Virus record (IMG/VR): IMGVR_UViG_3300042363_000209
From: a virus
Lineage: Duplodnaviria; Heunggongvirae; Uroviricota; Caudoviricetes
Direction: 5' to 3' (one strand)
Length of the DNA: 64,000 nucleotides
Each line of letters starts with the position of its first letter. The first letter of the stretch is position 1. Positions 1 to 47,999 of this stretch are shown here, piece by piece. The position numbers and the translations under genes were made by a program. The notes beneath the pieces were generated by a model. It was not told the origin of the DNA. It saw only the letters and a list, made by a program, of their open reading frames with translations, and ran no database searches.

Positions 1-3000
1 TCAGGAACTAGTGGGTCTTCAGGCTCATCTGGAACATCAGCAATAGATGGCACATCTGGAACTAGTGGAACTAGTGGAACCAGTGGTGCTGATGGTAGTA
101 ATGGTACATCTGGTTCATCAGGTACTTCTGGAGAAACAGGTGACCAATTTGCAACAACTTCTACTACATCGTTTACATTAGGTAGTAATGGAGCCATTGT
201 TGTAGGAACACAACTTGCATATACAGTAGCTCAATCTATTGTAATAGCTTATGATATAAACAACTTCCAAGAATGTGAAGTGGTATCTTATAACCCAGCT
301 ACTGGTGGATTAATTTTTGGCACTCCAACTAGAACAGTTGGTAGTGGTACATATACAAGCTGGATAGTTAACTTAGACGGTGCTTCTGGAGGAGATGGTT
401 CTTCTGGAACATCTGGCACTACTGGAACTTCAGGATCTTCTGGGACTAGTGGTTCTTCTGGAACTGCTGGAACAACAGGAACCAGTGGTACAAGTGGCAC
501 GACTGGAACAAGTGGTTCTAGTGGTACATCTGCAATTGATGGAACTAGCGGTACAAGTGGCACAACTGGAACTAGTGGAACAGCTGGTACAAGTGGAACA
601 TCAGCTATTGATGGAACATCTGGTACAACTGGAACCTCAGGAACTAGTGGCACAACAGGTACAAGCGGTACATCTGGTTCAAGTGGAACATCTGCTACCA
701 ATGGTACAGGTGGTACTAGTGGATCAAGTGGAACAAGTGGCACATCAGGAATTGATGGTACAAGTGGATCTAGTGGAACTACAGGAACAAGTGGAACCTC
801 AGGTTCTTCTGCAACTAGTGGAACATCTGGTTCAACAGGTACATCTGGAACTAGTGGAACAAGCGGCTCTTCAGGAACTGCTGGTACTACTGGTACCTCA
901 GGAACTTCTGCAATAGATGGAACAAGTGGAACATCTGGTACCACTGGTACGTCAGGTAGTGGTGGTACTTCAGGTACCTCAGGTACAACTGGTATAGATG
1001 GTACTAACGGAACTTCTGGCACAACTGGTACTAGTGGTACTAGTGGGTCAACAGGTACGTCTGGCACAAGTGGAACATCTGGTGTAGACGGAACAAGTGG
1101 TACCTCAGGTACAAGTGGAACTTCTGGTACAAGTGCTATTGATGGCACAAGTGGTACTAGTGGAACAACTGGTACAAGTGGTACTAGTGGAACTAGCGGT
1201 ACTAATGGTACTGGTGGAACTAGTGGAACTAGTGGATCTACAGGTACTTCAGGCTCTAGTGGAACTACTGGTACAAGTGGATCATCTGGTACAAGTGGTA
1301 GTTCTGGATCTAGTGGAACTAATGGAACTGGTGGCACTTCAGGTACAACAGGAACAAGTGGTTCTAGTGGAACTAATGGAACTGGTGGAACTAGTGGTAC
1401 ATCAGGATCTAGCGGTACAACTGGAACTTCAGGAAGCTCAGGTACAAGTGGAACAACTGGTACAAGTGGTTCTACAGGAACTAGTGGTACGTCTGGTACA
1501 ACAGGAACTAGTGGATCTAGCGGAACAAGTGGAACAAGTGGTACTTCAGGTACGGCTGGTACATCAGGTATAAATGGTATATCTGGAGGACTTGTATACT
1601 ATCTAAATCAATCATTAAATACAAATACGGCTTTTGGTACTCCTACTTATAAACAATTTTCATCAACTGCTACAGGTGGTGCAGAACAAACTGTAGTTAC
1701 AAATATAGCGGCAGACACAAGAACATTAATTGCAACTTTTGCAACTGATAGTGGTGTACCAAATATAACAAATATACCTTCAGGTCTTTGGGCTTTCGTA
1801 ACACACCTTTCAATTGATACAAATAGAAATGTTGCAGTAGATGTAGAATTATACAAGTATACAACTGGTGGTGTTTCTACTCTTTTAGGAACTACAAACA
1901 TTGATACAGAATCAATGAGCAATGGTGTTATTAAAGAATTTTTTACAGATTTATTTTTGCCACAAACCACATTAAATGCAACAGATAGACTTTATTGTCA
2001 AATTTATGTTGAATTTACTGGTGGTGGTGCTAATCATAATATAACTTTTTATACAGAGGGTACGAGTAACTACTCATACGCTCAAACAACATTCAATGCT
2101 CCTTCAGGAACATCAGGTACCACTGGAACAAGTGGAACTGATGGATCTTCAGGAACTTCTGGTACATCAGGAACAAGCGGTACCACTGGTACTTCAGGTT
2201 CAACTGGTACAAGTGGAAGCTCTGGTACAACAGGTACATCTGGCTCTTCTGGTACATCTGGTTCATCTGCAACTTCTGGTACCACTGGTACATCAGGAAG
2301 TTCAGGAACTAATGGAACTGGAGGTACCTCTGGTACAAGTGGAACTTCAGGTTCTAGTGGTACTAATGGAACTGGTGGTACAAGTGGAACAAGTGGCACA
2401 ACTGGAACCAGTGGTACAACAGGTACTAGTGGAACTAGTGCAACAAGTGGTACATCAGGTACCACAGGAACATCAGGATCTTCTGGTGTTAGTGGTAGTA
2501 ATGGAACTAGTGGTACGTCAGCAACTTCAGGAACTTCAGCTACTAATGGAACTGGCGGTACTTCAGGTACTACTGGAACATCAGGCTCTTCAGGCTCTTC
2601 AGGTACTAATGGTACAGGTGGTACATCTGGAACTAATGGTACAGGAGGAACTTCTGGAACAACTGGAACCTCAGGCACATCTGGTATAAACGGTACATCT
2701 GGCACAACAGGAACAAGTGGAACTAGTGGAATAAACGGTACATCAGGTACAACTGGTACCTCTGGCACTTCTGGTGTTAATGGATCAAATGGTACTTCTG
2801 GAACTACAGGAACTAGCGGTTCTTCTGGCACTGCTGGTACATCAGGTATTAATGGTACATCAGGTACCACTGGCACAAGCGGTACTACTGGTACCTCTGG
2901 AACAAGTGGATCAAGTGGTATTAATGGTACATCTGGAACTGCTGGTACAACTGGTACTAGTGGTACATCAGGAGCTGCAGGATCTCCAGGAGCTCCTGGA

Positions 3001-5868
3001 ACTAATGGTACATCTGGATCTTCTGGATCTAGTGGTGTGAATGTTGGTTCTAGTGCTGTTATTATTGCTGGTACAGGGACTGCTTCATCTGTTAGATGTG
3101 GTGCTTCAAACACTGCTTCAGGAAATTGTAGTTCTGTATTAGGTGGTGCTGGTAACACAGGTGATTTTGCATATTCATTTATTGGTGGTGGTTGTCAAAA
3201 CCATGCTTCAGGTAACTTCCATGGAACTATTGTTAATGGACAAGGTAACTGTACTAATGCAAATTATAATTTTATAGGTAATGGATTAAATAACGTAGCC
3301 TCAGGTACACAATATAATACAGTTGTAAATGGAGCATCTAACACTGCAAGTGGAGATTATGCTTTTATAGGAAATGGTTTTGGTAATAGTGCTGCTGGAC
3401 AATGTTCATTTGTTGGAAGTGGAACTTTTAATGGAGCTAATGGAACATCTGGTGTGGTAGTTGGTGGTCAAAATAACTCTGCTAATGGATCATTTTCAGC
3501 AGTATTAGGAGGTTGTGGTAATACTGCAATGGGAGCATATTCTGGTGTATTTGGATGTGGTTTATCAAACAGTTTATCATGTTCATTCATGGCTAACTGC
3601 TTTGTACAACCTAATTTAAGTAATGCAATGATAGGTGGATGTGCTGTATGTGCAGGACCTTTGGGTGAGCTTATTGCTTACACTGCTTCAAGTGGAGGTG
3701 GTGTAATGGTTGCTGGTAGTGCTCCTGGTTCAATTCAAGGTAATGGATTTTCTAACACAGCAAGTGGATATTGTTCTAGTGCTTTAAGTGGTACTACCAA
3801 TGCTAGTTCTAGCAACGGATCAGTTATTACTGGTGGTGGATTCAACAGTAACTCTGGAATGTATTCATTCATTGGAGGAGGTTTCTTTAACAATGTAATT
3901 TCTGCAAGCTGTTCAGTTATTAGTGGTGGTAATAACAACTGTGTTTGTTCATCTAGTTCAACAATATCTGGTGGTGTATTTAACAAAATATTATCAAGTA
4001 CAAACTGTTCTACAATTAGTGGTGGTGCATGTAATATTATTTGTACTAATTCTGCTGGTAATTTAATTGCTGGTGGTAAGTCTAACACTGTTAGTAGTTA
4101 TGCCAGCTGTAATGTAATTGGAGGCGGTGATATCAACATGATTGGAACAGGTTCAACACATGGTGTAATTGCTGGTGGTACTTTTCATAATATTGGTAAT
4201 TACTCAGGTAACAATGTTATATCTGGAGGATTTATGAATAACATTGGCAGTAATGGTACTAGTGGTACTATATCTGGAGGAAGCATGAATACTATTAGTG
4301 GATATGTAACTGGTGCAACTATAACTGGAGGACAGGGTAATTTTGCTACTGCAAACTATTCAACTGTATCTGGATGTGGTTTAATGAATTCATTAGCATG
4401 TACACACATGGTTAATGATTTAGCAATCACTTCATTTGCTCCATACGTTGGAATGGGTTGTAGTATAAGCTTTGATGGCTTTGGTAAATTATGTTTAACT
4501 GCTGGTGGTGGTGGTGGATCAAGCATTATGGTACTAGGAATGGGAGCTGGTTCTACAGAAAGATGTGGTAACTTTAACACGACAGGAGGTACTAACTCTG
4601 GAGCGTTAAGTGGTTTCTTTAACAATGCAGGTGGAAGTTCGTCAGTAATTGCTGGTGGTGAAGCAAATAACAATAGTGCAGCTTGTTCATTTATTGGAGG
4701 TGGATTTAATAATTTTACGGCTAGTAGTTATCCTTTTAATAATATTGGGATGACAATTGGTGGTGGTGTTAATAATAAAGTGTGCGTTAGTTATGGAACA
4801 ATAGGTGGAGGATGTTGTAATACTATTGGAGCTTCAGGAAGTTCAGGGTTTTCTACTATTGGTGGTGGAAAGCTTAATAATGCAAATGGAGATTATTCAA
4901 CAGTTAGTGGTGGATATTCTAACAGTGCTTCAGCTTACTTTACCTTTATTGGTGGTGGACGATCCAATGGAGCATTTGCTGAAGGTGCTGCAGTTGCTAG
5001 TGGTTTTTATAATAACGCTATGAGCTGCCGTTCTTTTGTTGGTGGTGGTGAAATGAATATGGCTAGTGCATGTAGTTCTGCTATTATAGGAGGTACTATG
5101 AATAATGCAGGTGGTAATTGTTCAGTTATTGTAGGAGGTTCTGGTAACACGACTAGCAGTGCATATTATGCTAGCTTCCCTAGTTATGGTTTCATTGGAG
5201 GTGGACAAACCAATTGTAATTATGGTGGTTGGGGTTTCATTGGAGGTGGTAGTAACAATACTATAGCTGGAGGTAATATGTTTAGTAGTAGTATGAAGTC
5301 AGGTATTCTTGCTGGATATCAAAACTATGTAAGTTCAGAAATGAGTGGTATTCTTGCTGGACAATCTAACAACGCAATGGCTGCAGCTTCTGCTGTTACT
5401 GGTGGTTGTTTCAACATGAGTATGGGAATAGGAAGTGTTGTAAGTGGATGTCAGATAATGTCAACAGACTCATTTGTAAATCATGCTAGTTGTTTCAAGG
5501 CTGCTAATTTAAATCCAGGAGGTGCAATTTGTGCAAATGCTACTGGAATGATTGTTTTAAATACATCTGATGCTAGATTAAAGTGTTGCATTCAACCTGT
5601 TGGATATCAGCTTTGTGATGTTAGCAAATTAGTTCCTTCATTCTATGAATTCAATAGTGCTAATAAAGCTAATGGAGAAGGAAAACAAGTAGGATTCATT
5701 GCTCAACAAGTTAAAGACGTAGTACCTGAATCAGTAAAAATGACCTTTAGTGGATACTACTCATTTGATTCATCAAAACTAATACCTATTTTAACCAAGG
5801 GTGTGCAAATTTTGATATCTTGTGTAGATTCATTAACTTTACAGTTAGAAGAATTAAGAAATAAATAA
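1..5868 (+). CDS. Collagen-like tail fiber/receptor-binding protein, 5'-partial. Frame 1 is open from base 1 with no stop before the GTG at 280. It has two Gly-X-Y tracts (mostly G-T-S/G-T-T triplets) around a ~170-aa globular insert, a long Cys-rich glycine beta-roll repeat region, and a C-terminal intramolecular chaperone/auto-processing (S74-like) domain.
   Basis: Translation from nt 1 gives SGTSGSSGSSGTSAIDG..., so the ORF extends upstream of the window. There are hundreds of uninterrupted GXY triplets. Residues ~926-1740 carry repeats of the form GGxxNxASGxxSxIGGG (YadA-head/beta-roll-like). The C-terminus ...KQVGFIAQQVKDVVPESVK... matches the conserved motif of endosialidase/T5 L-shaped-fiber C-terminal chaperone domains. 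Confidence 0.8.
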   Translation, partial: SGTSGSSGSSGTSAIDGTSGTSGTSGTSGADGSNGTSGSSGTSGETGDQFATTSTTSFTLGSNGAIVVGTQLAYTVAQSIVIAYDINNFQECEVVSYNPATGGLIFGTPTRTVGSGTYTSWIVNLDGASGGDGSSGTSGTTGTSGSSGTSGSSGTAGTTGTSGTSGTTGTSGSSGTSAIDGTSGTSGTTGTSGTAGTSGTSAIDGTSGTTGTSGTSGTTGTSGTSGSSGTSATNGTGGTSGSSGTSGTSGIDGTSGSSGTTGTSGTSGSSATSGTSGSTGTSGTSGTSGSSGTAGTTGTSGTSAIDGTSGTSGTTGTSGSGGTSGTSGTTGIDGTNGTSGTTGTSGTSGSTGTSGTSGTSGVDGTSGTSGTSGTSGTSAIDGTSGTSGTTGTSGTSGTSGTNGTGGTSGTSGSTGTSGSSGTTGTSGSSGTSGSSGSSGTNGTGGTSGTTGTSGSSGTNGTGGTSGTSGSSGTTGTSGSSGTSGTTGTSGSTGTSGTSGTTGTSGSSGTSGTSGTSGTAGTSGINGISGGLVYYLNQSLNTNTAFGTPTYKQFSSTATGGAEQTVVTNIAADTRTLIATFATDSGVPNITNIPSGLWAFVTHLSIDTNRNVAVDVELYKYTTGGVSTLLGTTNIDTESMSNGVIKEFFTDLFLPQTTLNATDRLYCQIYVEFTGGGANHNITFYTEGTSNYSYAQTTFNAPSGTSGTTGTSGTDGSSGTSGTSGTSGTTGTSGSTGTSGSSGTTGTSGSSGTSGSSATSGTTGTSGSSGTNGTGGTSGTSGTSGSSGTNGTGGTSGTSGTTGTSGTTGTSGTSATSGTSGTTGTSGSSGVSGSNGTSGTSATSGTSATNGTGGTSGTTGTSGSSGSSGTNGTGGTSGTNGTGGTSGTTGTSGTSGINGTSGTTGTSGTSGINGTSGTTGTSGTSGVNGSNGTSGTTGTSGSSGTAGTSGINGTSGTTGTSGTTGTSGTSGSSGINGTSGTAGTTGTSGTSGAAGSPGAPGTNGTSGSSGSSGVNVGSSAVIIAGTGTASSVRCGASNTASGNCSSVLGGAGNTGDFAYSFIGGGCQNHASGNFHGTIVNGQGNCTNANYNFIGNGLNNVASGTQYNTVVNGASNTASGDYAFIGNGFGNSAAGQCSFVGSGTFNGANGTSGVVVGGQNNSANGSFSAVLGGCGNTAMGAYSGVFGCGLSNSLSCSFMANCFVQPNLSNAMIGGCAVCAGPLGELIAYTASSGGGVMVAGSAPGSIQGNGFSNTASGYCSSALSGTTNASSSNGSVITGGGFNSNSGMYSFIGGGFFNNVISASCSVISGGNNNCVCSSSSTISGGVFNKILSSTNCSTISGGACNIICTNSAGNLIAGGKSNTVSSYASCNVIGGGDINMIGTGSTHGVIAGGTFHNIGNYSGNNVISGGFMNNIGSNGTSGTISGGSMNTISGYVTGATITGGQGNFATANYSTVSGCGLMNSLACTHMVNDLAITSFAPYVGMGCSISFDGFGKLCLTAGGGGGSSIMVLGMGAGSTERCGNFNTTGGTNSGALSGFFNNAGGSSSVIAGGEANNNSAACSFIGGGFNNFTASSYPFNNIGMTIGGGVNNKVCVSYGTIGGGCCNTIGASGSSGFSTIGGGKLNNANGDYSTVSGGYSNSASAYFTFIGGGRSNGAFAEGAAVASGFYNNAMSCRSFVGGGEMNMASACSSAIIGGTMNNAGGNCSVIVGGSGNTTSSAYYASFPSYGFIGGGQTNCNYGGWGFIGGGSNNTIAGGNMFSSSMKSGILAGYQNYVSSEMSGILAGQSNNAMAAASAVTGGCFNMSMGIGSVVSGCQIMSTDSFVNHASCFKAANLNPGGAICANATGMIVLNTSDARLKCCIQPVGYQLCDVSKLVPSFYEFNSANKANGEGKQVGFIAQQVKDVVPESVKMTFSGYYSFDSSKLIPILTKGVQILISCVDSLTLQLEELRNK

Positions 5869-5897
5869 TTTAAAAAACAAAAATAAAAAATAAAGTT

Positions 5898-6242
5898 ATG
5901 TTAGTAGCTAAAATTAGTCCAAGTGCATCTTTCTCTGAAAAAGATGAGAACCCATTCAGTTCTGCAACAGTTGCATCATTTGATCACTTAGGAGTGATTG
6001 GTGTAAACTATATTCCAGGAAATGAAAAACATGAGTTTGTAGTTGTTTATGGCAACATCAAAAATGTAAATGATGTAGATTATTTACAGAGAGCTCCTCA
6101 ACGTACACAACTTGTGTTAACTGCTGCAGAAGTAGCTAACTGGGGTACAAACGATGAAGAGTTGTTTCAAATTGTTGCAGCTAAATTAGGAACATCTGTA
6201 GTGGAGTTCAAAGAAGTTAGCAATAACCTTAATGTATTGTAA
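5898..6242 (+). CDS. Hypothetical protein (114 aa), immediately downstream of the fiber gene
   Basis: Complete ORF with the same upstream context AAAATAAAGTTATG as the gene at 18928. No recognisable motif. Confidence 0.5.
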   Translation: MLVAKISPSASFSEKDENPFSSATVASFDHLGVIGVNYIPGNEKHEFVVVYGNIKNVNDVDYLQRAPQRTQLVLTAAEVANWGTNDEELFQIVAAKLGTSVVEFKEVSNNLNVL

Positions 6243-6269
6243 TATTAATTTAAGGTGAAGTAATAAAAA

Positions 6270-6297
6270 AAGCCCAGTTAATTCTGGGCTTTTTTGT
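6270..6297. terminator. Bidirectional rho-independent terminator between converging fiber (+) and decoration (-) operons
   Basis: Hairpin AGCCCAG-TTAATT-CTGGGCT preceded by an A-run and followed by TTTTTTG. Confidence 0.7.
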
Positions 6298-6301
6298 TTT
6301 A

Positions 6302-7123
6302 TTATTTACTATATCTAAATGTGTCATAGAACCATTTGTAATTGGTATAGATCCAATCTGTTACGTCCTTACCTAATAACTCTTTGGCTTTACTTCTTAC
6401 AGGTTCAAGTTTTGTACGAATAACGTGATCACCAAATGCACCGTACACTTCATCATCTTCTTTAGTTACTTGCTCAATGTGATCAAAGTCATGTTGATAA
6501 TATGTTAATCCTAGATATTCATATATCTTAATCATTGTAGTATCTGGATATAAACATAAGTCTTCAAACTTTACAAATAACATTTTGTTATTAATTCCTG
6601 TTCTAAATATCTCACTAAGTCTTTCAAGAGCAAGTCCTACAGGAGGTTGTGATGCCCATATGTCTATACGCTTAGGTACAGTGGTTCCTTGTCCTTTAGC
6701 CCAATCTAAAATATCAGATTGCTTCTCTGGATGTTTTCTAAAGTTACCTTCCATAGATGCAAATACATCACGTAAGTCTCTCACCATACAAATGATTTTT
6801 GGTTCTTCATTGTGTACAAACTGTAAGAAATCATAGTGTATGCCCCAACCTCTGCTTTTATCTATAACATATTTCTTATCTGTAATAGCATTGTAGAAAG
6901 CATCCATACCAGATTTAGCAAATGCTTGCCATCCTTTTTTCATAAGTTCAGCATCTTGAGCTTTAAACTCAGTAGAGTTAGTGTAATTAGCACGTGCTCC
7001 AAATATTAATTCAAGTACACCAGACGTAGGTGTAGCATATATATCAGGGTTCTGTGCAAGAATGTTTTGTAACAATGTAGATCCTGACCTAGGTAAAGAA
7101 CTTTGATAGAATATTTTTTCCAT
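6302..7123 (-). CDS. Sulfotransferase-family protein (PAPS-dependent)
   Basis: N-terminal 5'-PSB-like P-loop (SSLPRSGSTLLQNIL), size 273 aa, and an adjacent APS-kinase-like gene. Confidence 0.6.
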   Translation of the reverse strand: MEKIFYQSSLPRSGSTLLQNILAQNPDIYATPTSGVLELIFGARANYTNSTEFKAQDAELMKKGWQAFAKSGMDAFYNAITDKKYVIDKSRGWGIHYDFLQFVHNEEPKIICMVRDLRDVFASMEGNFRKHPEKQSDILDWAKGQGTTVPKRIDIWASQPPVGLALERLSEIFRTGINNKMLFVKFEDLCLYPDTTMIKIYEYLGLTYYQHDFDHIEQVTKEDDEVYGAFGDHVIRTKLEPVRSKAKELLGKDVTDWIYTNYKWFYDTFRYSK

Positions 7124-7989
7124 TATTTTAAAGATTTAATTACATTGTTTATATTAAACATTTCAGACTCATTATTGTAAGGAAACTCTATAAGCTCACC
7201 TGATATATTATATTTGTTCAAATAAGAGTTTCTTAGTTCAGAGGAACTTGTTTCTGGATTAGCTGTAATGTTTGTATGAATATCATATCCAAATACATTA
7301 GGAACATTTACAACCCATAGTACAGTGGATGGTTTATTCAAAGCAGCTGCAGCATGTTGACCAAAGCTATCCATCATTAATCTTTTATCACTTATACTTA
7401 TAAGTACAAGAAGTGCTCTGAATGTATCAGTTACAGGAAATGTACCTTCATAATTTATTTGATCTTCTCTTCTTATGTGAACAATATTATACTGTTCTTT
7501 AAATTCATGTATAACATTCTCCACCACATAACTAGGAATATCTCTAGCCCATGAGTATTTAACATCAGATTCAGTCCCACCATTTGTTTGTAGTAGCAAA
7601 ATAGGTTTATCAGATATGAACTTCTTACTAAAGAAATCTATTTCTCTTTTTGTAAGAAATAATTCTCCAACAGTTTTAGTTACAGGTAAGTCATATAGCT
7701 TACACCAAGTTTCAATAAGATGTTCTTCTTGTTTGATGTGCTTTGTTTCTAGATAAGGATCATGTGCAAACAATATAATCTCTTGATTCTCAATGTACTC
7801 CTTATAGAAATAAGCTTGTTGACCAAAGCCATAAGCTCTATCCACATTAGGATTACCTAAAAATACATCTGGATAACCAGAGACAACAATCAGTTTACAA
7901 TCAGGGTACTTAGTTTTTATTGAAGCACACACAGCTGTGGAGGCAATCACCTTGCCTATACCACCATTAATTTGAAATATTATATTCAT
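7123..7989 (-). CDS. GT9-like glycosyltransferase (heptosyltransferase family)
   Basis: N-terminus NIIFQINGGIGKVIASTAVCASIKTKYPDCKLIVV resembles the GT9 'ILIIRxxxIGDVIxxTP' signature. The start overlaps the upstream gene (ATGA-type coupling). Confidence 0.5.
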   Translation of the reverse strand: MNIIFQINGGIGKVIASTAVCASIKTKYPDCKLIVVSGYPDVFLGNPNVDRAYGFGQQAYFYKEYIENQEIILFAHDPYLETKHIKQEEHLIETWCKLYDLPVTKTVGELFLTKREIDFFSKKFISDKPILLLQTNGGTESDVKYSWARDIPSYVVENVIHEFKEQYNIVHIRREDQINYEGTFPVTDTFRALLVLISISDKRLMMDSFGQHAAAALNKPSTVLWVVNVPNVFGYDIHTNITANPETSSSELRNSYLNKYNISGELIEFPYNNESEMFNINNVIKSLK

Positions 7990-8372
7990 AGTTTACCTTC
8001 TTTTTTCATTTGTTCTCTAATTTGTGTAGCAGATATATCATGTATCTCTTGTGGTGGTACATGTTCAACGACATCATAACCCACCCCTCTTCCAAAGTTT
8101 ATAGACTCAATATCAGGGATAATTATAAGTCTCACCTTACCTTCTTCAATTAAATCATTTAATGCTTCTGCTAAGTTCATCATGATTTGATACGCAGACC
8201 ATGGATTCTTTTCATCCTCTTTAACATCTCTTACACATAGCAACACCTTCTTTCCCTGGTTCAATTGTTGATCAATTAACCATCTGTGACCAGCGTGCCA
8301 TGGTTGCCATCTTCCTATGAACATTGCATACCCATCCGTCTTACGGTTTCCCTCAGCTAAAATATTCTGCAT
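7986..8372 (-). CDS. Small HxGH nucleotidyltransferase (cytidylyl/adenylyl-transferase-like, TagD/HldE-domain-II class), 128 aa
   Basis: Motif FIGRWQPWHAGH equals the (F/G)xFDxxHxGH signature. The C-terminal ISATQIREQM resembles TagD ISTTKIKEEI. Length equals a minimal CTP_transf_like domain. Confidence 0.6.
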   Translation of the reverse strand: MQNILAEGNRKTDGYAMFIGRWQPWHAGHRWLIDQQLNQGKKVLLCVRDVKEDEKNPWSAYQIMMNLAEALNDLIEEGKVRLIIIPDIESINFGRGVGYDVVEHVPPQEIHDISATQIREQMKKEGKL

Positions 8373-8794
8373 ATACGCTTGATTTTATCTAAACTGTCTT
8401 CAATAGAAGTGTTAGAAGTGTTAATAATTAAATCTACATTATCCATGTGAGGAACTTCAAAGTCTTTCACTTTAAAGTCATCTCTACCTCTATCTTCTTC
8501 ATAGATGAGATATATCCATTTGACATCTCTAGTTAGTTTATTAAGATGTTCTCTAGCTTCTTCATAAGGATACACTAGTGATAACACTATGTTATAGTTT
8601 TTAGCTTTATTTAAATAGTGTGCTATATCACTGGCTCTGTTTAAGTTCTTAATCCTACCTTCTCTACTGTAGTCTTTATTCTTAAACATATCTCTTAATT
8701 CATCACCATCTATGTGATGAAATCCCTCTGCTATAAATTTTTTAGCAAGGGTTGTTTTACCTGATGCAGGTTGACCAAATAATACTATTATCAT
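8357..8794 (-). CDS. Adenylylsulfate (APS) kinase-like P-loop kinase
   Basis: Walker A VLFGQPASGKTTLAKK, followed by IDGDELRDMF...SREGRIKNLNRASDIAHYL. This parallels CysC LDGDNVRHGL...EDRAENIRRVGEVAKLF. Confidence 0.6.
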   Translation of the reverse strand: MIIVLFGQPASGKTTLAKKFIAEGFHHIDGDELRDMFKNKDYSREGRIKNLNRASDIAHYLNKAKNYNIVLSLVYPYEEAREHLNKLTRDVKWIYLIYEEDRGRDDFKVKDFEVPHMDNVDLIINTSNTSIEDSLDKIKRICRIF

Positions 8795-11700
8795 AGTAAG
8801 TGTTTTATTTTATTAATTACTGTTTCTGCAGATATACCTTTATGACATTCAAATTGTCTGTCAGTTCCTTTATGTACAGGACACCAATCCCAATCACCTT
8901 TGTCAAACTTAAAGTTAGGATTGTTCCAACAACCATGACATAAGTTTGTATCTGTAATTCTTAAACAATTAGATTGAAACTCATGATCTGCTTCTGTAAA
9001 GTTACTAATCATTACAGTTTGCTTACCCATCATCCAAGCTAACCAGCTCAGTCCTGAGCTTAATCCTATAAAGAACTTACTATTCCAGATCATATTGATA
9101 GTGTTATCCATAGAAGTATCTTCTATCTGTGTACAGTTATCAAATGGATTTTTTTCTTTAGATACATTGTACACCTTGTATCCATGATCAACTAGATAGT
9201 TAATCAAAGCCTGCCAACCTTGCTTGGTCCAGAACTTACATCCTGATGTACTGTTTGTAGCAATAGTTACAAATGTATCTTTACCACTAAATTTAACTGG
9301 TTCATAAGCAAATCTAGGTCTAATCTCTTTCCATTCTAATCCTAGTATGTTAGTAGCTGCTTTCTGTAAAGGAATAGTGTTACACAACACAGGTTCTTTA
9401 TCTTTACCGTATCTCCAGCCAACAATGTACTGACCATGAATATTACCCACTACACTTCCTGGAGTGATAAACTCAAGCTCTGGATACGCTTTCTCAAACA
9501 AGAAATTCTTATATGTGCTCACTACAACATGACAGTTGTGTTTCTTTCTGAATTCATTGCAATACGGTATCCAGGCAATAGTATCACCTAATGATTGACT
9601 ATCTATACAGATGTATACACGCTTACCTTCATAGTTTAACGTTTCTTCAAAGATGAGTTCTCCATCTTCCCATACCATAGCTGTCCACTTGGTAAACCAT
9701 TGTCTATTTAACTTAACCCAACGGTTGCTAGTAATTGTATTTTCATAATGGCAAACCCCTTTCTCATCAAAGAATTTGATTAAGAAGTTACTATCACTGT
9801 TTCCTGTAATTTCTAAGGTGGGACTCTCTACAAATAACAAAGATATATTCACCTTTGTTTTCTTCTTTTTTCTAGGAACAATGGGTATATCAAGTGTTTT
9901 GTTATACAAGTGTAAATGATTTTGTGCAAATCTGTTATCTGGTATGTCATGAAAAACAACACCAACAGGATATTTTTCATTCACTTCATCTAAATCACTA
10001 TCTATAGGTAGGATGTATCTAGTAAACATATCTTCATACTGAGGAAGATTTCTAGCTACTACAGGAAGTGCATAGCTGATCGCTTCTCTAAGTACAAGAG
10101 GATTACATTCCCATGTGCTGTTAAACATGAATATGTCTGCAGCTTTTAAGAATATATCTACATCATTTCTCTCTCCCCATATCTTTACATTCTTTGGTAA
10201 GTTTTCCATCAACGGTTCCCAGTAGTCTTTAAAGTTGGGGGCTTGATTACCTACAAAATGGAAGTCCATACTAGGATATTTTCTAGCTATCTCTATTCCT
10301 TCTTTCTGATTCTTTCCTGGAGTCCACAGTCCTACGTTTACAACATTAGGTCTGTTCAGATTAAATCCTAACTCATCTTTAGCATCCACTTTATGTACAA
10401 TACTTGGTCTCTTATCTTCTATAGGGAATTCAATTACATCTTTATAAGCCTTCATGTTAGCAAATGTCTTATAATGATATGGTGTACAGAAAGCATAAGC
10501 TTCTGGTTCATACTTCTTAAGTTCGTCAGGATTAAACCAAACGTTATGACATGTCTCAACTATTCTCCAGGTTCTATCAGGAGCATACAATGCATCTAAT
10601 AACTGAGGGCTTATTTGATTAAAACTCTCAAACCCTTCTAACATTTCTTCTACATGTACAACATCAATGCTATTCTTTTTGATGATGTCAATGAGCTCCA
10701 TCTTGTTTTCTCCTAGTGTAAACATCCTGTTTTCAGGCAATAGCTTTTTGATTTCATTCTTCTGTACAACATACACAGGACTGAAGTCAGAGTACTCCAC
10801 TACATAAATTCGTACGAAATGTTGTAGTTCTTGCACTCTTTTTAGGAGGAAACCAGGCATACCACCTGTAGATAAGTGAGGAGCTAAGAACAATACACTT
10901 AGTTGTTTCTCTGCACTCTCTAGAGTTTGTATCATCTTATTCATCACCTTTGGATCTTTCTCTCCATGTAAGAATAATAACTTATGTTTATTATCTGGTA
11001 ATCTTGACCAGCTTCCGTGGTGCTTCCCCCACTCAAGCTTATCGTAGATGTCTTCTATTCTATCTAGGCTAGCATTGGTGTAGATGTAAGGTAGGCCATC
11101 TAACACTCCCCACTTCCACAATAACACGTTAGCTATTGTTTCTTCATGGTATGGAGCATACCACTCATGGTTAGCCATCACTTTAGGATGAGTACACATC
11201 CAGTACCACTCATCTAAGAAATCAAAGCAGTAATGGTTGGCTACAAAATAACCTGTTTGTCTATATCTCTGTCTAACATATTGATTGACACCAAACAATT
11301 CACATGCTGGTGCTTCTAATGTTGTAGACATATCTTCTCTAGTATCAGCCCCACCTCTACCATTGATGTGTAGATAGTCATAAATACCCTCTACAAAATA
11401 GGGATAGTTCATTTTAGGATACATATCAAAGATGCTATCAACATATTCTGTGGCTACACTATCAGAGTCTATATAAGCTACTGTATGAGCACAGTTTAAT
11501 AGAGCATCTTTAACAATCATTGGACGTTCTATCAACAGTCTATAAACATTCTTATCACTTCTATCAATGTATTTGTTGATAGAAAGCTTTGGTAGATTAG
11601 ACTTCCACATAATTGTTGTAGCACCAGGAATATCTGCAATAGTATCTAATAAATATACGTAGATGGGAAGCTCGCTATATCTTCTTATAGAAGCTACACA

Positions 11701-12288
11701 AGCTTTAACGGTAGGAACATAAGATGCATTTGCATATAAAACGTACGCTTTTTCAGCTTTTATATGCTTATTCGTATAATACCCATACAAATGATTACTG
11801 TAAAGTTCAACTAGCTGGGGGTATCTAGTCTTCATTACCCTGTGAGTTAGGTCTTCCTGGAGATGGGTTTCGTATGTATTACCATACTCTTCACCATCTT
11901 GAGCCATCATATATGGTACAGCCACTAAACATTCTTTGCCTGCATCTGTTATATCTGTAATAAGCTTCTGACCTTCTTCAGCTGTAAGATGTTCTAGTAT
12001 ATCTCCTAGGATGATGTAGTCATATTCTGACCAGTCAAACTCACGGATGTCTGCATTGTGTACTGTTCCGTACCAATCTTTCAGTTTGAATTCTTCAATG
12101 TAAGGGGCCCAAGCTTCAACAGCATCTATATCATAACCAATATCTTCTAAAAGCTTAGCATAAGTACCCTGTCCAGGACCAACATCTAATATCTTTTTAT
12201 GTGTAGGAACATGATGTTCAAAGTATTTCTTAATCTCAGGTTTGTAAAAAGTATAACTATTTGGCATAATGCTGGTTATTTTGAACAA
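8791..12288 (-). CDS. Giant multidomain decoration enzyme (1165 aa). N-terminal class-I SAM methyltransferase, followed by GT-A (GT8-like DxD), GT-B (GT4-like) and a C-terminal GT9-like domain.
   Basis: Four domain signatures in order: SAM motif I ILDVGPGQGTYAKLL; a DxD motif, AYIDSDSV; a GT-B region, FMFNSTWECNPLVLREAISYALPVVARN; and a C-terminal CHGCWNNP... segment with GT9-like layout. Confidence 0.55.
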   Translation of the reverse strand: MFKITSIMPNSYTFYKPEIKKYFEHHVPTHKKILDVGPGQGTYAKLLEDIGYDIDAVEAWAPYIEEFKLKDWYGTVHNADIREFDWSEYDYIILGDILEHLTAEEGQKLITDITDAGKECLVAVPYMMAQDGEEYGNTYETHLQEDLTHRVMKTRYPQLVELYSNHLYGYYTNKHIKAEKAYVLYANASYVPTVKACVASIRRYSELPIYVYLLDTIADIPGATTIMWKSNLPKLSINKYIDRSDKNVYRLLIERPMIVKDALLNCAHTVAYIDSDSVATEYVDSIFDMYPKMNYPYFVEGIYDYLHINGRGGADTREDMSTTLEAPACELFGVNQYVRQRYRQTGYFVANHYCFDFLDEWYWMCTHPKVMANHEWYAPYHEETIANVLLWKWGVLDGLPYIYTNASLDRIEDIYDKLEWGKHHGSWSRLPDNKHKLLFLHGEKDPKVMNKMIQTLESAEKQLSVLFLAPHLSTGGMPGFLLKRVQELQHFVRIYVVEYSDFSPVYVVQKNEIKKLLPENRMFTLGENKMELIDIIKKNSIDVVHVEEMLEGFESFNQISPQLLDALYAPDRTWRIVETCHNVWFNPDELKKYEPEAYAFCTPYHYKTFANMKAYKDVIEFPIEDKRPSIVHKVDAKDELGFNLNRPNVVNVGLWTPGKNQKEGIEIARKYPSMDFHFVGNQAPNFKDYWEPLMENLPKNVKIWGERNDVDIFLKAADIFMFNSTWECNPLVLREAISYALPVVARNLPQYEDMFTRYILPIDSDLDEVNEKYPVGVVFHDIPDNRFAQNHLHLYNKTLDIPIVPRKKKKTKVNISLLFVESPTLEITGNSDSNFLIKFFDEKGVCHYENTITSNRWVKLNRQWFTKWTAMVWEDGELIFEETLNYEGKRVYICIDSQSLGDTIAWIPYCNEFRKKHNCHVVVSTYKNFLFEKAYPELEFITPGSVVGNIHGQYIVGWRYGKDKEPVLCNTIPLQKAATNILGLEWKEIRPRFAYEPVKFSGKDTFVTIATNSTSGCKFWTKQGWQALINYLVDHGYKVYNVSKEKNPFDNCTQIEDTSMDNTINMIWNSKFFIGLSSGLSWLAWMMGKQTVMISNFTEADHEFQSNCLRITDTNLCHGCWNNPNFKFDKGDWDWCPVHKGTDRQFECHKGISAETVINKIKHLL

Positions 12289-12326: not shown

Positions 12327-12695
12327 ATGCAAATAGAAGTAAGTATTGGGGAAGTTGTGGACAAATGGACCATCCTTTCCATCAAGGCTTTGAACATTAC
12401 AGACAAAGACAAACTTAAGAACGTTTTTGTTGAGAAAAACTACTTAAATACAGTGATTGACCCTGAAATTCTACACGATCCACTAGTAGATGATCTACTT
12501 AAGACAAACAAAGCTCTTTGGGATGTGGAAGACTTGCTCAGAGACTTTGAAAGAGCTGGTAGTTTTGGCCCAGAATTTGTTGATCTGGCTAGGTCAGTGT
12601 ACAAATTGAATGATAAAAGAGCACATATTAAAAAAGAAATTAATATCAAGTACTTCTCTGAGTTTGTAGAGGAGAAATCATACAACCCTTACTAA
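12327..12695 (+). CDS. Hypothetical protein (122 aa); first gene of the rightward block after a divergent AT-rich promoter gap
   Basis: Complete ORF with no motif. Confidence 0.45.
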   Translation: MQIEVSIGEVVDKWTILSIKALNITDKDKLKNVFVEKNYLNTVIDPEILHDPLVDDLLKTNKALWDVEDLLRDFERAGSFGPEFVDLARSVYKLNDKRAHIKKEINIKYFSEFVEEKSYNPY

Positions 12696-16939: not shown

Positions 16940-17956
16940 ATGAAGGATTTAAAGTTTATCTGTGCTCAGCCAGATGATACTTACTATACTTGGCAAGTAC
17001 ATGCCTGGTTAGAAAGTTTAAAAGAAATTGGGCACTTGGACAAAGCAATTGTGTTAATATACACTCCTAGCTTTAGAGAAAAAAGTGATAAATGGCAAAA
17101 GATAGTTGATCTGTATCCAGAAGCAGAGTTTGCTTTCTATAAAGACACAGGAGATGTAAGTAAATACTTAGGAGTTTATATTCCTGTTTTACGTCCATAT
17201 GTCTTGATGAGATACTTTCAGGAACACCCTGAGATGATAAGCAAAGCAGTGTTCTACTGTGACTGTGATATTCTGTTTACAGATAAATTTGATGTAGAGA
17301 AGTATAGAGACGATGAAGTCTGCTACTTGTCTGACACAAACAGCTACATAAATGCTTCATATTTTGATAGTAAAATAAAAGATGTTCTTCCTGCTAAGCT
17401 AGAAGAATACAAAACTAGAGATGTCCTAGCTGAGCTTACAAGCTTAATAGGAATCAATAGAGAAATAGCTGAAGCTAACAACGAACATTCAGGAGGAGCT
17501 CAATACTTCTTAAAGAATGTGGATGCTACCTTCTGGAAGAAGGTGATGAATGACTGTATTGTTATTCGTAGCTATCTTCAACATATAAACAAAGAGTTCT
17601 TTGGTAGTGAAGATAAAGGATTTCAAAGCTGGTGTGCAGATATGTGGGCCGTGTTATGGAACCTTTGGTTAAGAGACCAAGAAACTAAAAACATCCCTGA
17701 GATGGATTTCTCTTGGGCAACAGACCCAATTGAAAAGGTGGAGAAACTAGGACTCTTTCATAATGCAGGAGTGACAGCTAAAACAATGTATGGCTACCCT
17801 GCGTTCTATAAAGGAACATACCACACAGGTAAAGATCCTTTCAGTGATAGTCACATGTATGTAGTGCATACTAGTGATGAGTCTAAAAAACATGGTACAT
17901 ATTACTATGTTAAAAAACTATTAGAATTAAAAAACAAATATAACCTTAACTATTAA
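16940..17956 (+). CDS. Hypothetical protein (338 aa), possible GT-A-type glycosyltransferase
   Basis: Possible DxD-like FYCDCDILFTDKFD. Otherwise unassigned. Confidence 0.3.
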   Translation: MKDLKFICAQPDDTYYTWQVHAWLESLKEIGHLDKAIVLIYTPSFREKSDKWQKIVDLYPEAEFAFYKDTGDVSKYLGVYIPVLRPYVLMRYFQEHPEMISKAVFYCDCDILFTDKFDVEKYRDDEVCYLSDTNSYINASYFDSKIKDVLPAKLEEYKTRDVLAELTSLIGINREIAEANNEHSGGAQYFLKNVDATFWKKVMNDCIVIRSYLQHINKEFFGSEDKGFQSWCADMWAVLWNLWLRDQETKNIPEMDFSWATDPIEKVEKLGLFHNAGVTAKTMYGYPAFYKGTYHTGKDPFSDSHMYVVHTSDESKKHGTYYYVKKLLELKNKYNLNY

Positions 17957-21412: not shown

Positions 21413-21437
21413 AAAGCCCCTATTTGGGGCTTTTTTC
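21413..21437. terminator. Bidirectional terminator at the convergence of the + block and the long - block
   Basis: AAAAGCCCCTATTTGGGGCTTTTTTC. GC hairpin flanked by A-run and T-run. Confidence 0.7.
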
Positions 21438-22151
21438 ATTTAGAAGAGTATGTAAATATCTCATAAAGCTTTTATGTCTTATATAATGATGTGTTACATG
21501 TTTATGTAAAAATGTAACATCTTCTTCTGTAAGGTCAGCTAGCATCTTAGGTACATAACTATCTCCTTCTTTCCAAAGGTCATTGAAATATCTTTGAAAT
21601 GGAAACCAGCCATTTAGATATAGTCTATGTAAAACATTTGAATCTAAAAACTTATCATAGATTTTTATCTGGTTCTCTTTTAACCATGTGCCTATACAAA
21701 CATCTTCATATCCATAACCTTTTACAGTCATAGGTTGACAATTTTTAATCAGTTGTGGAGATATAAAATAACCACATCCCCCTGATGGATAATCTAGTTC
21801 AGGTTCTTTTGTATAAGACCCTTTCATACTATATCCGTATACAGCAGTTTTACTAAAGAATGTAATCACTTCTTCAAATAAAGGAATGTTAAGTATTGCA
21901 TCATCATCAATGAAGACTAACCAATCATATGCATCAAGTTGGTCAGTAGTCCTAACCAGGTTAATGAAGTTGACTGTCTTCTCTTCATTGCTTTGATAAT
22001 CATCTTTGTCAGAACAAGATATCTCATTAGGTCTCCCTGTAAGTTTATCTGTAAGACATACATAATCAAGAGCAGATAACCACGTTTCAAGGCAGTTATC
22101 TACTCTGTCAGTATGTTTATGACTAGTTTTTAATACAATTTTGTATTTCAT
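21420..22151 (-). CDS. GT31/Fringe-like glycosyltransferase (beta-1,3-glycosyltransferase fold)
   Basis: DWLVFIDDDAIL (DDD motif) and YPSGGCGYFISPQLI (the GT31 'SGGAGYVLS' motif). Confidence 0.5.
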   Translation of the reverse strand: MKYKIVLKTSHKHTDRVDNCLETWLSALDYVCLTDKLTGRPNEISCSDKDDYQSNEEKTVNFINLVRTTDQLDAYDWLVFIDDDAILNIPLFEEVITFFSKTAVYGYSMKGSYTKEPELDYPSGGCGYFISPQLIKNCQPMTVKGYGYEDVCIGTWLKENQIKIYDKFLDSNVLHRLYLNGWFPFQRYFNDLWKEGDSYVPKMLADLTEEDVTFLHKHVTHHYIRHKSFMRYLHTLLNEKSPK

Positions 22152-47973: not shown

Positions 47974-47999
47974 GTTGTGTTTTTTAATTGTTAATGTTG

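Follow-up and report, generated by a model that had tools for sequence, protein, structure and literature searches.

Several described systems bear on the locus analysed here. In E. coli, the autotransporter heptosyltransferases Aah and TibC (BAHT family) are associated with AIDA-I and TibA, respectively, and characterised members of the Aah/TibC family are encoded beside their adhesin substrates. Sulfate activation by Sat-CysC, PAPSS1/2 and CysDN-CysC follows a two-step logic in which sulfate is adenylylated and the product is then 3'-phosphorylated. Glycosylation of the virion in mycobacteriophages, of BclA in Bacillus and of collagen in giant viruses provides precedents for decoration of an own, partly collagen-like surface protein, although the enzyme families differ from those of the present locus, which is known here from its genes; to our knowledge, none of these three carries sulfotransferase or PAPS-supply genes. 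The nearest precedent for sulfation is likewise an in-silico prediction with a local supply of PAPS: Iyer et al. (2010, PMC2938197) proposed that bacterial sulfotransferases and PAPS synthetases sulfate the collagen-like and tail-collar proteins encoded alongside them. There, a 2OG dioxygenase hydroxylates before sulfate is added, whereas the phage operon has no dioxygenase and carries glycosyltransferases in its place, so that sulfate would probably be placed on a sugar.

The window, i.e. the whole 64,000-nucleotide stretch of DNA that was analysed, is derived from a lytic, uncultured phage of ~115 kb. An earlier, sequence-only reading had proposed a cluster of five co-directional, translationally coupled minus-strand genes at 6302-12288, and the ORF check recovered all five at these coordinates. 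The operon and its surroundings comprise the following features:

6302-7123, minus strand: sulfotransferase, 273 aa
7123-7989, minus strand: GT9-fold glycosyltransferase, 288 aa
7986-8372, minus strand: HxGH adenylyltransferase, 128 aa
8357-8794, minus strand: lid-less APS-kinase-like P-loop kinase, 145 aa
8791-12288, minus strand: four-domain fusion enzyme, 1165 aa
6266-6295, both directions: predicted bidirectional intrinsic terminator (12-bp stem, 5 GC pairs, flanking A-run and T-run)
1-5868, plus strand: tail-fibre gene, 5' end beyond the window, 1955 aa visible
5898-6242, plus strand: 114-aa ORF 3' of the fibre gene (ORF call)
12327-12695, plus strand: DUF6165 protein, 122 aa (PF19662, 2.2e-10), divergent from the operon
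21420-22151, minus strand: fringe/GT31-like glycosyltransferase (PF02434, 1.1e-6; Galactosyl_T, 8.5e-5)

Consecutive operon genes, taken from 6302 to 12288, overlap by 1, 4, 16 and 4 nt, which makes translational coupling plausible. The 128-aa and 288-aa ORFs are not chance ORFs, since they have >6000 and >2000 metagenome homologues, respectively. The predicted terminator separates the modification operon from the convergent fibre unit, and the DUF6165 gene on the other side is co-conserved with the 1165-aa gene (related loci L003, L004, L009, L010, L012-L015, L027 and L034). Elsewhere in the window, the GT31/fringe-like assignment of 21420-22151 was borne out by the PF02434 match, while the possible GT-A enzyme at 16940-17956 was not confirmed: this ORF has zero Pfam matches, and its PHROG match is a family of no known function.

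The 1165-aa fusion was divided into four domains, listed from the N-terminus:

~11911-12243, minus strand: SAM methyltransferase domain (Methyltransf_11/23, marginal in Pfam)
10879-11748, minus strand: DxD domain, residues ~181-470, with an invariant DxD
9889-10878, minus strand: GT4 glycosyltransferase domain (Glycos_transf_1, 1e-12)
8800-9789, minus strand: predicted Aah/TibC-type protein O-heptosyltransferase domain (TIGR04414, TibC)

Its C-terminal 330 residues, GT9-related according to Pfam, are homologous to Aah and TibC, matching TIGR04414 at 4.3e-73 (246 bits against an NCBIfam equivalog cut-off of 200) and TibC in the PDB (4rap) at 2.5e-44 over 307 aligned residues. The phage domain retains the catalytic Asp, the Cys4 finger that binds Fe, and three sugar-binding residues out of four; Asp110, Thr226, Lys230, Trp305 and the four iron-finger cysteines, all kept, are required for heptosylation of TibA (residues mapped against PMC4358343). 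Arg286, which binds heptose in TibC, is replaced by Thr in the fusion and by Thr, Ala or Val across the phage family, suggesting that the donor may not be ADP-heptose, and the window encodes no heptose pathway. Based on these matches, the C-terminus is predicted to be an Aah/TibC-type autotransporter protein O-heptosyltransferase. Like Aah and TibC, the phage enzyme appears cytoplasmic and soluble and is encoded beside a large, repeat-rich and Ser-rich adhesin-like protein; unlike them, it comes from a phage, shares its polypeptide with methyltransferase, DxD and GT4 domains, and is accompanied by a putative sulfation arm. Of the domains first proposed for the fusion, the methyltransferase (marginally), the GT4 and the GT9-related C-terminus thus held, whereas the GT-A (DSD) label was not confirmed: residues ~181-470 have zero matches in Pfam or the PDB, and only the invariant DxD speaks for it.

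The convergent neighbour was confirmed as a >1,950-aa, Ser/Thr-rich collagen-like fibre. It consists of proline-free collagen-like runs of G-T-S, G-T-T and G-S-S (nt ~49-1593 and ~2107-3042), a globular insert, ~840 aa of 14-residue Gly/Ser/Asn repeats and a C-terminal chaperone:

3058-5580, plus strand: adhesin-like repeat region of the trimeric-autotransporter head beta-roll type (phmmer against the PDB)
5566-5739, plus strand: Peptidase_S74 intramolecular chaperone at the fibre C-terminus (Pfam PF13884, 3.9e-10)

Its visible 1955 residues contain 239 G-X-Y triplets, 121 of them G-T-S; Ser and Thr make up ~55% of the collagen parts, and the NCBIfam collagen-like adhesin models SclB/Lcl match the protein. 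The ~840-aa repeats align by phmmer with the head of Moraxella UspA1 (3pr7, E 2.8e-11; 3ntn, 6e-5), an alignment of repeat on repeat with scores that carry high compositional bias. These UspA1-like repeats are a plausible candidate acceptor for the Aah/TibC-type enzyme; the fibre as a whole combines trimeric-autotransporter-like and collagen-like repeats in place of a classical autotransporter beta-helix. The 114-aa ORF downstream has zero Pfam and PHROG matches but is kept at 94-97% in L009/L010 and ~30% in L020-L022, where its homologue lies directly 5' of the sulfotransferase; its product might be an accessory or assembly factor of the fibre.

We infer that the enzymes of the operon act in the cytoplasm to modify a virion protein after translation, most likely the adjacent tail fibre, a plausible reading in which our confidence is about evenly balanced. 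The enzymes, the Aah/TibC domain, the UspA1-like repeats and the fibre adjacency all favour the sulfo-glycosylated fibre originally proposed, of which the supply of activated sugar by the 128-aa enzyme (see below) is very unlikely. The sulfotransferase call was verified: the 273-aa protein matches Sulfotransfer_3 (5.2e-17) and Sulfotransfer_1 (5.9e-12) in Pfam, as the sequence-only reading had anticipated, has a PRSGST 5'-phosphosulfate-binding loop at its N-terminus, and has cyanophage homologues annotated as sulfotransferase. In related phages the 288-aa GT9-fold gene mostly adjoins the sulfotransferase. When sought in other phage genomes, the gene set was found beside fibre genes in two phage types. 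In the window's own lineage the sulfotransferase/GT9-like/kinase/adenylyltransferase module adjoins collagen-like fibres, and in an unrelated, sheath-bearing lineage it lies directly 3' of that phage's own S74-chaperone tail fibre and additionally includes a GT1, a GT-A-like protein and Methyltransf_21.

Host-modifying morons, too, typically lie next to a fibre gene, and the operon might instead remodel an envelope glycan of the infected host (LPS core, O-antigen or capsule), blocking superinfection or keeping progeny from re-adsorbing to lysed cells, with the fibre not being the acceptor. This is consistent with the weak resemblance (1.9e-9) of the sulfotransferase to the carbohydrate sulfotransferase NoeE, its sole characterised distant relative, with the occurrence of the cellular kinase-adenylyltransferase pair in capsule and polysaccharide loci with Wzz, Wzi and ABC exporters, and with cyanophage sulfotransferases that do not adjoin fibres. 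We nevertheless consider it rather unlikely. The TibC-family domain passes the equivalog cut-off of a protein-specific enzyme and keeps the needed residues, and the module adjoins fibre genes in both phage types. Further, Pfam profile search revealed no flippase, Wzx/Wzy or lipid-carrier transferase in the operon, no TM segment was predicted in any of its five proteins, which all appear soluble, and the Pfam survey of the window turned up no integrase or lysogeny genes.

The sulfation arm proposed for the fibre requires PAPS, and two small operon proteins are candidates for making it. The APS-kinase-like call for the 145-aa protein was upheld by PF01583 (8.6e-10, 39.3 bits against a Pfam cut-off of 21.1) and by its best PDB sequence matches, the APS kinases 2yvu and 8a8h. 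It keeps the P-loop, DGD..R, R..N..R and S.V.PY motifs and, unlike CysC, lacks ~19 aa of lid. The 128-aa protein has an HxGH nucleotidyltransferase fold (CTP_transf_like, 6e-5; AF2 model with pLDDT 91.9), but its TagD/HldE-like label was imprecise: its closest relatives by sequence and structure are NadM/archaeal NMN adenylyltransferases, from which it is predicted to descend. The ATP-sulfurylase model of Pfam fails to recognise it (E 0.045), and compared with Sat it is small (110-130 aa in the family vs the ~200-aa catalytic core of the ~390-aa Sat) and has no QxRNP sulfate motif. As in PAPS synthases, however, an APS-family kinase with P-loop and DGD is partnered by a member of the HxGH superfamily.

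The partnership itself is clear. From the adenylyltransferase side, the kinase is directly upstream in 82/84 viral loci, and from the kinase side the adenylyltransferase is next in 78/80; in 65/76 cellular loci holding the adenylyltransferase the kinase is paired or fused. The adenylyltransferase is therefore a near-obligate kinase partner in phages, bacteria and archaea. Fusions of homologues with canonical, full-length APS kinases (170-230 bits, with E as low as 9.5e-69) occur in either order, as in PAPSS, and these fusions together with the pairing statistics place both genes in the PAPS arm. Near the pair we found sulfotransferases of four families (Sulfotransfer_1/3, Sulfotransfer_1, Sulfotransfer_2 and Sulfotransfer_5), sulfotransferase-GT fusions, capsule loci and a CysQ-like Inositol_P gene. 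Neither Sat nor CysDN is encoded in the rest of the window. The 128-aa enzyme is a predicted minimal ATP sulfurylase converting sulfate to APS.

An improbable alternative is that some other phosphate ester (NMN, giving NAD, or X-P) is adenylylated by the 128-aa enzyme and the product then receives a 3'-phosphate from the kinase, in parallel with dephospho-CoA kinase or the cytidine-diphosphoramidate kinase of C. jejuni, with PAPS coming from the host and the sulfotransferase adjacency partly coincidental. APS-kinase homologues with other substrates exist (Cj1415), and the closest relatives are, again, NMN adenylyltransferases. In phages of Xylella, Stenotrophomonas and Xanthomonas, fused versions are surrounded by early/nucleotide-metabolism genes, with no annotated sulfotransferase nearby; none is seen either around the pair in many jumbo-phage loci whose 10-kb flanks are complete, and jumbo-phage copies adjoin a DNA methylase and a DHH-like protein. 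In one Acidobacteriota locus an adenylyltransferase-kinase fusion adjoins CysD and CysN, which would make a second ATP sulfurylase redundant there. Against this, the family lacks the ~40-aa segment that forms the nicotinamide (NMN) pocket in archaeal NMN adenylyltransferases (1f9a, 1ej2) and has gained near-invariant, family-specific Arg48 and Gly94-Arg95 ('GRGVGY'); the protein scores far below the NCBIfam cut-offs, and its near-obligate partner is APS-kinase-like, no NadV or Nudix partner having been found for the family. The fusions to canonical APS kinases and the independent links to four sulfotransferase families and the CysQ-like gene also favour PAPS synthesis. The original suggestion of a sugar-1-phosphate nucleotidyltransferase (HldE domain II/HldC-like) feeding ADP-sugar to the two GT9-type enzymes is highly improbable, and sugar activation by this enzyme very unlikely, as the gene tracks the kinase while a 288-aa GT9-like homologue occurs in only ~24/84 of the same viral loci, its fusions are to APS kinases with no GT9/pfkB fusions in the sample examined, and NMN adenylyltransferase, PPAT and ATP sulfurylase are ranked ahead of cytidylyl- and heptose-transferases among its relatives. 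The window encodes no sugar-activation gene.

For modification of the fibre, we propose that the 128-aa adenylyltransferase would convert ATP and sulfate to APS, and the lid-less kinase would phosphorylate its 3'-OH to yield PAPS, the two acting as a ~270-aa PAPS synthase. The TibC-like domain would attach a first sugar, from host ADP-heptose or a related ADP-sugar, to Ser/Thr of the UspA1-like beta-roll repeats and/or the G-T-S collagen triplets. The glycan could then be lengthened by the GT4 domain, the DxD domain and the 288-aa GT9-fold enzyme, and capped by the methyltransferase and the sulfotransferase.

The tiny two-enzyme PAPS kit predicted here is uncharacterised and widespread in marine bacteria and archaea. 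If the proposed pathway is true, its product would be a negatively charged, methylated glycan coat on the fibre, which could stabilise the proline-free triple helix and could tune adsorption or shield the fibre from proteases or grazers.

The five open reading frames that the sequence-only reading had described on the minus strand between 6302 and 12288 proved to be real, at the positions it gave them. The region is laid out as follows:

1..5868 (+), collagen-like tail-fibre gene, 5' end beyond the window
6266-6295, strong bidirectional terminator, between the operon and the convergent fibre gene plus a 114-aa ORF
6302-7123 (-), 273-aa sulfotransferase, followed by the gene of a 288-aa GT9-like protein (-)
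7986-8372 (-), 128-aa adenylyltransferase
8357-8794 (-), 145-aa kinase
8791-12288 (-), 1165-aa protein with a methyltransferase, a DxD/HGEK domain, a GT4 and a TibC-like C-terminal domain

Successive operon genes overlap by 1, 4, 16 and 4 nt, in order, and none of the five proteins has a hydrophobic stretch that could form a TM helix. The window (GC ~33%) is that of a tailed phage, with genes for rIIA/rIIB, a UvsX/RecA-like recombinase, ribonucleotide reductase, DNA polymerase, the large terminase and a P22-like portal. The large terminase shares no more than 40% identity with its counterpart in Leptolyngbya phage Lbo-JY46 and 33% with those of Cellulophaga phages phi17:2 and phi4:1; at the DNA level, comparison of the region with cultured phages returned nothing useful, only short patches of 69-72%. 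Many metagenomic contigs, 110-117 kb long, carry genes near-identical to those of the window, and one such contig belongs to the bin of a Cytophagia MAG; as to a possible host, the taxa named by bins are Cytophagia and Flavobacteriia. The phage replication module also holds a full-length tmRNA gene (47997-48410, minus strand; Rfam RF00023, 88 bits, cut-off 47), for which ARAGORN gives a tag peptide ending in ASELALAA.

Judged by its sequence, the C-terminal domain of the 1165-aa protein (residues ~834-1163) is an autotransporter-type protein heptosyltransferase. It scores 246.4 bits against NCBIfam TIGR04414 ('autotransporter strand-loop-strand O-heptosyltransferase', Aah/TibC), where the equivalog cut-off is 200 (E 4.3e-73; profile positions 28-373 of 374), and matches the sequence of the TibC crystal structure with E 2.5e-44 over 307 residues. 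When the residues discussed in the TibC structure paper (PMC4358343) were mapped onto the HMMER alignment, the catalytic base Asp110 and the Fe-finger Cys339/342/358/370 were found to be kept and invariant across the phage family; of the residues that bind ADP-heptose in TibC, Thr226, Lys230 and Trp305 are retained and Arg286 has given way to Thr (Thr, Ala or Val in phage relatives), and Pro300 of TibC is Ser in the phage domain, as in Aah. Homologues of the domain occur in megaphages of 636-735 kb and in Microcystis phage Mel-JY01, where it ends a 1226-aa fusion annotated 'FkbM methyltransferase' and lies beside a structural protein. The Aah/TibC enzymes characterised so far work in the cytoplasm, where they O-heptosylate serines in large adhesins built of repeats. 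No other single argument for a protein acceptor of the operon is as strong as this one.

As for the remaining domains of the fusion, GT4 (PF00534, residues 637-756) reaches 48.3 bits against a cut-off of 26.4, and the class I SAM methyltransferase passes the Pfam cut-offs marginally (Methyltransf_11, 23.8 vs 21.2; Methyltransf_23, 27.1 vs 27). The middle domain (residues 181-470), a candidate GT-A/GT8 domain with D-x-D and H-G-E-K motifs invariant in seven family members, has no match in Pfam, nor in the PDB when searched with a 7-sequence profile. Divergent from the 1165-aa gene lies that of a DUF6165 protein (12327-12695, plus strand; weak DUF4254 match), which co-occurs with it in at least 10 related loci and could assist the glycosyltransferase as an accessory factor. 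Farther away, the 338-aa protein at 16940-17956 (plus strand), once labelled a possible GT-A, was not confirmed as such; its match is phrog_4417, and it is co-conserved within ~8 kb of the module in related loci L009, L010, L013, L014, L018, L022, L029 and L033-L035.

The domain searches bore out much of what had been proposed from sequence alone, with Sulfotransfer_3, APS_kinase, GT4 and Methyltransf_11/23 over their Pfam cut-offs; PF01075, expected for the 288-aa protein, gave no match. That protein has no Pfam match at all, PDB phmmer and PDB profile searches were empty or weak, its NCBIfam similarity to RfaQ (E 0.003) covers the N-terminus only, and hhalign gave a probability of 10.5% against the TibC-like domain. 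Its identity is resolved through a structure model alone, which predicts a GT9-type GT-B fold; in this respect the earlier GT9 assignment stands as to fold, and sequence membership of PF01075 or the NCBIfam heptosyltransferases does not. The 273-aa protein belongs, as had been proposed, to the PAPS-dependent sulfotransferases: it matches Sulfotransfer_3 (PF13469; 5e-17, 63.3 bits vs a Pfam cut-off of 27) and Sulfotransfer_1 (PF00685; 6e-12, 46 bits vs 22), and has the 5'-PSB loop PRSGST at residues 11-16. Among named proteins, the sole distant relative is NoeE (1.9e-9, far under the cut-off), which sulfates a Nod-factor sugar. Homologues of ~28% identity annotated 'sulfotransferase' are carried by Synechococcus phages S-SKS1, S-SRM01 and S-SCSM1 in contexts that differ from the window's, and a 2023 paper called the role of phage sulfotransferases unclear (PMC10580990). 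The frequent adjacency of the sulfotransferase and 288-aa genes suggests that the sulfated sugar is the one added by the 288-aa GT9-like enzyme.

The visible 1955 aa of the fibre contain 239 proline-free G-X-Y triplets (G-T-S 121, G-T-T 32, G-S-S 31), a globular insert and a Peptidase_S74 chaperone. Further, ~840 aa of 14-residue Gly/Ser/Asn repeats match the head repeats of UspA1, a trimeric autotransporter of Moraxella (3pr7, 2.8e-11), a match of repeat on repeat with high compositional bias. With these UspA1-like, Ser-rich repeats, the neighbour of an autotransporter-type glycosyltransferase itself encodes an autotransporter-like protein; lying ~3 kb from the TibC-like enzyme, the fibre is a candidate substrate only. 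Glycosylated Thr stabilises Pro-poor collagen helices, as in Riftia cuticle collagen, which would give a structural rationale for modification of the fibre.

Ser/Thr-rich collagen-like ORFs flank the module in the window's lineage (L003, L009-L012, L014, L023), and as these loci are syntenic relatives they do not count as independent. Greater weight falls on L001, a contig of 180 kb that encodes sheath and baseplate and has a different fibre ('NTAVG' repeats and an S74 chaperone), after which come, in order, a GT-A-like gene, GT1, Methyltransf_21, a homologue of the 114-aa ORF, the sulfotransferase, the GT9-like gene, the kinase and the adenylyltransferase. In the close relative L003, a Trp_halogenase-family gene (5862-7097) lies between the fibre genes and the GT9-like and sulfotransferase genes, which resembles the cyanophage gene neighbourhoods of halogenase, dioxygenase and sulfotransferase reported earlier (PMC2938197). 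Taking the Aah/TibC-type domain together with the gene order of L001, we lean slightly towards a virion protein as the acceptor. Remodelling of the host envelope, the main alternative, appears unlikely to us; cellular relatives of the kinase and adenylyltransferase do lie, with Sulfotransfer_5 (1.8e-47), within Wzz/Wzi/GT4 capsule loci of Marinimicrobia (17 loci), and on the other side stands the action of the heptosyltransferase family on protein serines.

The donor for sulfation would come from the kinase and the adenylyltransferase. The description of the 145-aa protein as APS-kinase-like was upheld: it passes the Pfam threshold for APS_kinase (PF01583; 39.3 bits vs 21.1), its best PDB relatives are APS kinases, and it stays under the NCBIfam cut-offs (apsK, 35.4 vs 138.7; PRK05541, 44 vs 127). 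Alignment to canonical APS-kinase domains shows the P-loop, DGD..R, R..N..R and S.V.PY to be kept, with the Walker A P-loop GQPASGKTT at residues 7-15, and IDGDELR, GRIKNLNR and SLVYPY match column for column the canonical domain of the protein P0184 (230 bits). The role of the Walker A P-loop in APS kinase has been described, and D87/D89 are essential in hPAPSS1 (PMC11697783). Missing from the window's kinase, and from other short phage kinases, are ~19 residues of the mobile lid (KGLYKK...FTGID.PYE).

The best sequence matches of the 128-aa enzyme are NadM/archaeal NMN adenylyltransferases. Its motifs GRWQPWHAGH and ISATQIR correspond to NadM-type GRxQPxHxGH and ISxTxxR, and the fold is present; HAGH (residues 26-29) is near-invariant across the adenylyltransferase family, and the HxGH motif is required in hPAPSS1 (PMC11697783). 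A full-length NadM-type match is absent: the alignment covers profile positions 5-80 only, the protein has 128 aa vs 168-181 aa, and its scores lie far under the NCBIfam cut-offs (37 vs 127; 32.5 vs 181). Relative to NMN adenylyltransferases, ~40 acceptor-pocket residues are missing, and near-invariant Arg48 and Gly94-Arg95 have been gained. Against ATP sulfurylase (PF01747) the enzyme yields E 0.045 and 13.6 bits vs a cut-off of 24.3, no ATP sulfurylase is among its profile matches to the PDB, and it has GRWQP, not the sulfate-binding motif QxRNP of ATP sulfurylase. By sequence, then, it falls outside the Sat family. The rest of the window encodes neither Sat nor CysD or CysN.

The two genes are closely tied. 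The kinase lies directly upstream of the adenylyltransferase in 82 of 84 related viral loci; counted from the kinase side, the adenylyltransferase is next in 71 of 80 and within 3 kb in 7 more. In cellular genomes, scanned with an alignment of 12 sequences, the kinase is adjacent or fused in 65 of 76 loci holding the adenylyltransferase gene; these belong to SAR406/Marinimicrobia, Flavobacteriales, Marinoscillum, Marine Group III archaea, Nitrospiraceae and CPR bacteria, and the pair is chromosomal in SAR406, in Flavobacteriales and in archaea of Marine Group III. At 90% identity, the adenylyltransferase alone amounts to >6000 clusters. Fusions to full-length APS-kinase domains (up to 230 bits, E 9.5e-69) occur, in both orders, among representatives with 45-52% identity, and PHROG 10255 is an adenylyltransferase/APS-kinase fusion in Xylella, Stenotrophomonas and Xanthomonas phages. 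In Xylella phage Salvo (L007 2381-3076, 6578-7324) the fused gp32 ('kinase') lies 4 kb from an annotated 'cysteine dioxygenase', which may be another link to sulfur metabolism in a cultured phage.

Sulfotransferases of several kinds recur beside the pair. Besides the Sulfotransfer_5 of the Marinimicrobia capsule loci, 23 loci have the window's type, L064-L070 an unrelated Sulfotransfer_1, L055 and L086/087 proteins of Sulfotransfer_2, L091 a Sulfotransfer_3 with glycosyltransferases, and an Acidobacteriota MAG two sulfotransferase-glycosyltransferase giants. A CysQ-like Inositol_P gene accompanies the pair in 9 Flavobacteriales loci; in Bacteroidota and in Marine Group III archaea its neighbours include MetK, AhcY and a homocysteine methyltransferase. 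Cumulatively, we consider it likely that the pair supplies PAPS. Since the 128-aa enzyme holds the place of ATP sulfurylase, it most likely makes APS for the kinase, an assignment to which we give roughly even confidence; caveats to it are the enzyme's sequence, which places it outside Sat, an Acidobacteriota locus in which CysDN adjoins the adenylyltransferase-kinase fusion, and the jumbo-phage loci described next. A role of the pair unrelated to PAPS is improbable in view of these neighbours, with several jumbo-phage loci on the other side in which, with full flanks, no sulfotransferase was found near the pair and a DNA methylase and a DHH-like gene are present instead. The sugar-activating role first proposed for the 128-aa enzyme was rejected, and is very improbable, because co-occurrence and fusion tie it to the kinase and the sulfate arm; no heptose-pathway gene was found in the rest of the window.

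Several further features of these loci were recorded. In jumbo-phage loci L036-L043 (317-321 kb), where no sulfotransferase was detected and genes for the N6/N4 DNA methylase and the DHH-like protein come immediately after the pair, a 780-aa collagen-like ORF (~114-2456; 193 GXY triplets, low Ser/Thr) is encoded ~8-10 kb upstream. A DNA-modification role for the pair, prompted by this methylase neighbour, was considered, and no further link was found. A ~71-aa gene directly follows the adenylyltransferase in 42 of 84 viral loci and may be a third module component; it is DUF2061 in L001 (10384-10814), L002 (992-1422) and L090 (10034-10261), also follows the canonical APS-kinase fusion in a T4-like phage, and is not in the window. 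In some marine Bacteroidota, a second CTP_transf_like paralogue, of 132 aa, separates kinase and adenylyltransferase (L255 7545-7940; equivalents in L241, L248, L254, L259, L260). A search of Bacteroidota and Marine Group III loci for a SAM riboswitch upstream of the pair found none; the sole element, a SAM-II (long-loop) riboswitch in a marine Bacteroidetes SAG (L242 9496-9554, plus strand), lies downstream of the kinase-adenylyltransferase-MetK region and probably controls the next gene.

Based on these data, we propose that the 128-aa enzyme would convert ATP and sulfate to APS and the 145-aa kinase APS to PAPS, while the TibC-like domain would start O-glycosylation on Ser/Thr of the fibre; the GT4 domain, the DxD domain and the GT9-fold enzyme would extend the glycan, and the methyltransferase and sulfotransferase would finish it. 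We regard the chances of this overall picture, in which the sulfate donor is made locally and the fibre is glycosylated, methylated and sulfated, as evenly balanced. Taken singly, Aah/TibC heptosylation, PAPS synthases, sulfotransferases and the glycosylation of virions are already known, and bacterial collagen-like and tail-collar proteins were predicted in 2010 by Aravind's group to be sulfated by co-encoded enzymes (PMC2938197). In the literature found, coverage of which is incomplete, there was no characterised phage sulfation system, mini adenylyltransferase-kinase module or mini ATP sulfurylase.

The finding carries the specific prediction of a new ATP-sulfurylase class. In its full form, which we put forward tentatively and consider less likely than not, the 110-130-aa enzyme derived from NMN adenylyltransferase would be a third, minimal class; with the (often lid-less) APS kinase it would make up a PAPS synthase smaller than any known so far. 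The module is common in SAR406/Marinimicrobia, marine Flavobacteriales and Marine Group III archaea, and thousands of phages carry it. Here it would feed sulfation of a glycan set by the phage's autotransporter-type heptosyltransferase on its own adhesin-like collagen fibre, and no sulfated phage particle would have preceded this one. Should the small enzyme indeed make APS, annotation based on Sat/CysDN under-counts sulfate-activating capacity, which concerns the marine sulfur cycle, and a ~270-aa PAPS synthase would be a handy tool for enzymatic sulfation. An autotransporter-type protein heptosyltransferase fused to three further modifying domains and acting on a fibre both collagen-like and autotransporter-like would extend its family beyond enterobacterial virulence factors. 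If true, sulfation would add a novel form of post-translational modification to phage virions, next to their glycosylation, which has been recognised recently, and it would matter for adsorption, host range and stability and for how grazers or immune systems recognise the particle.
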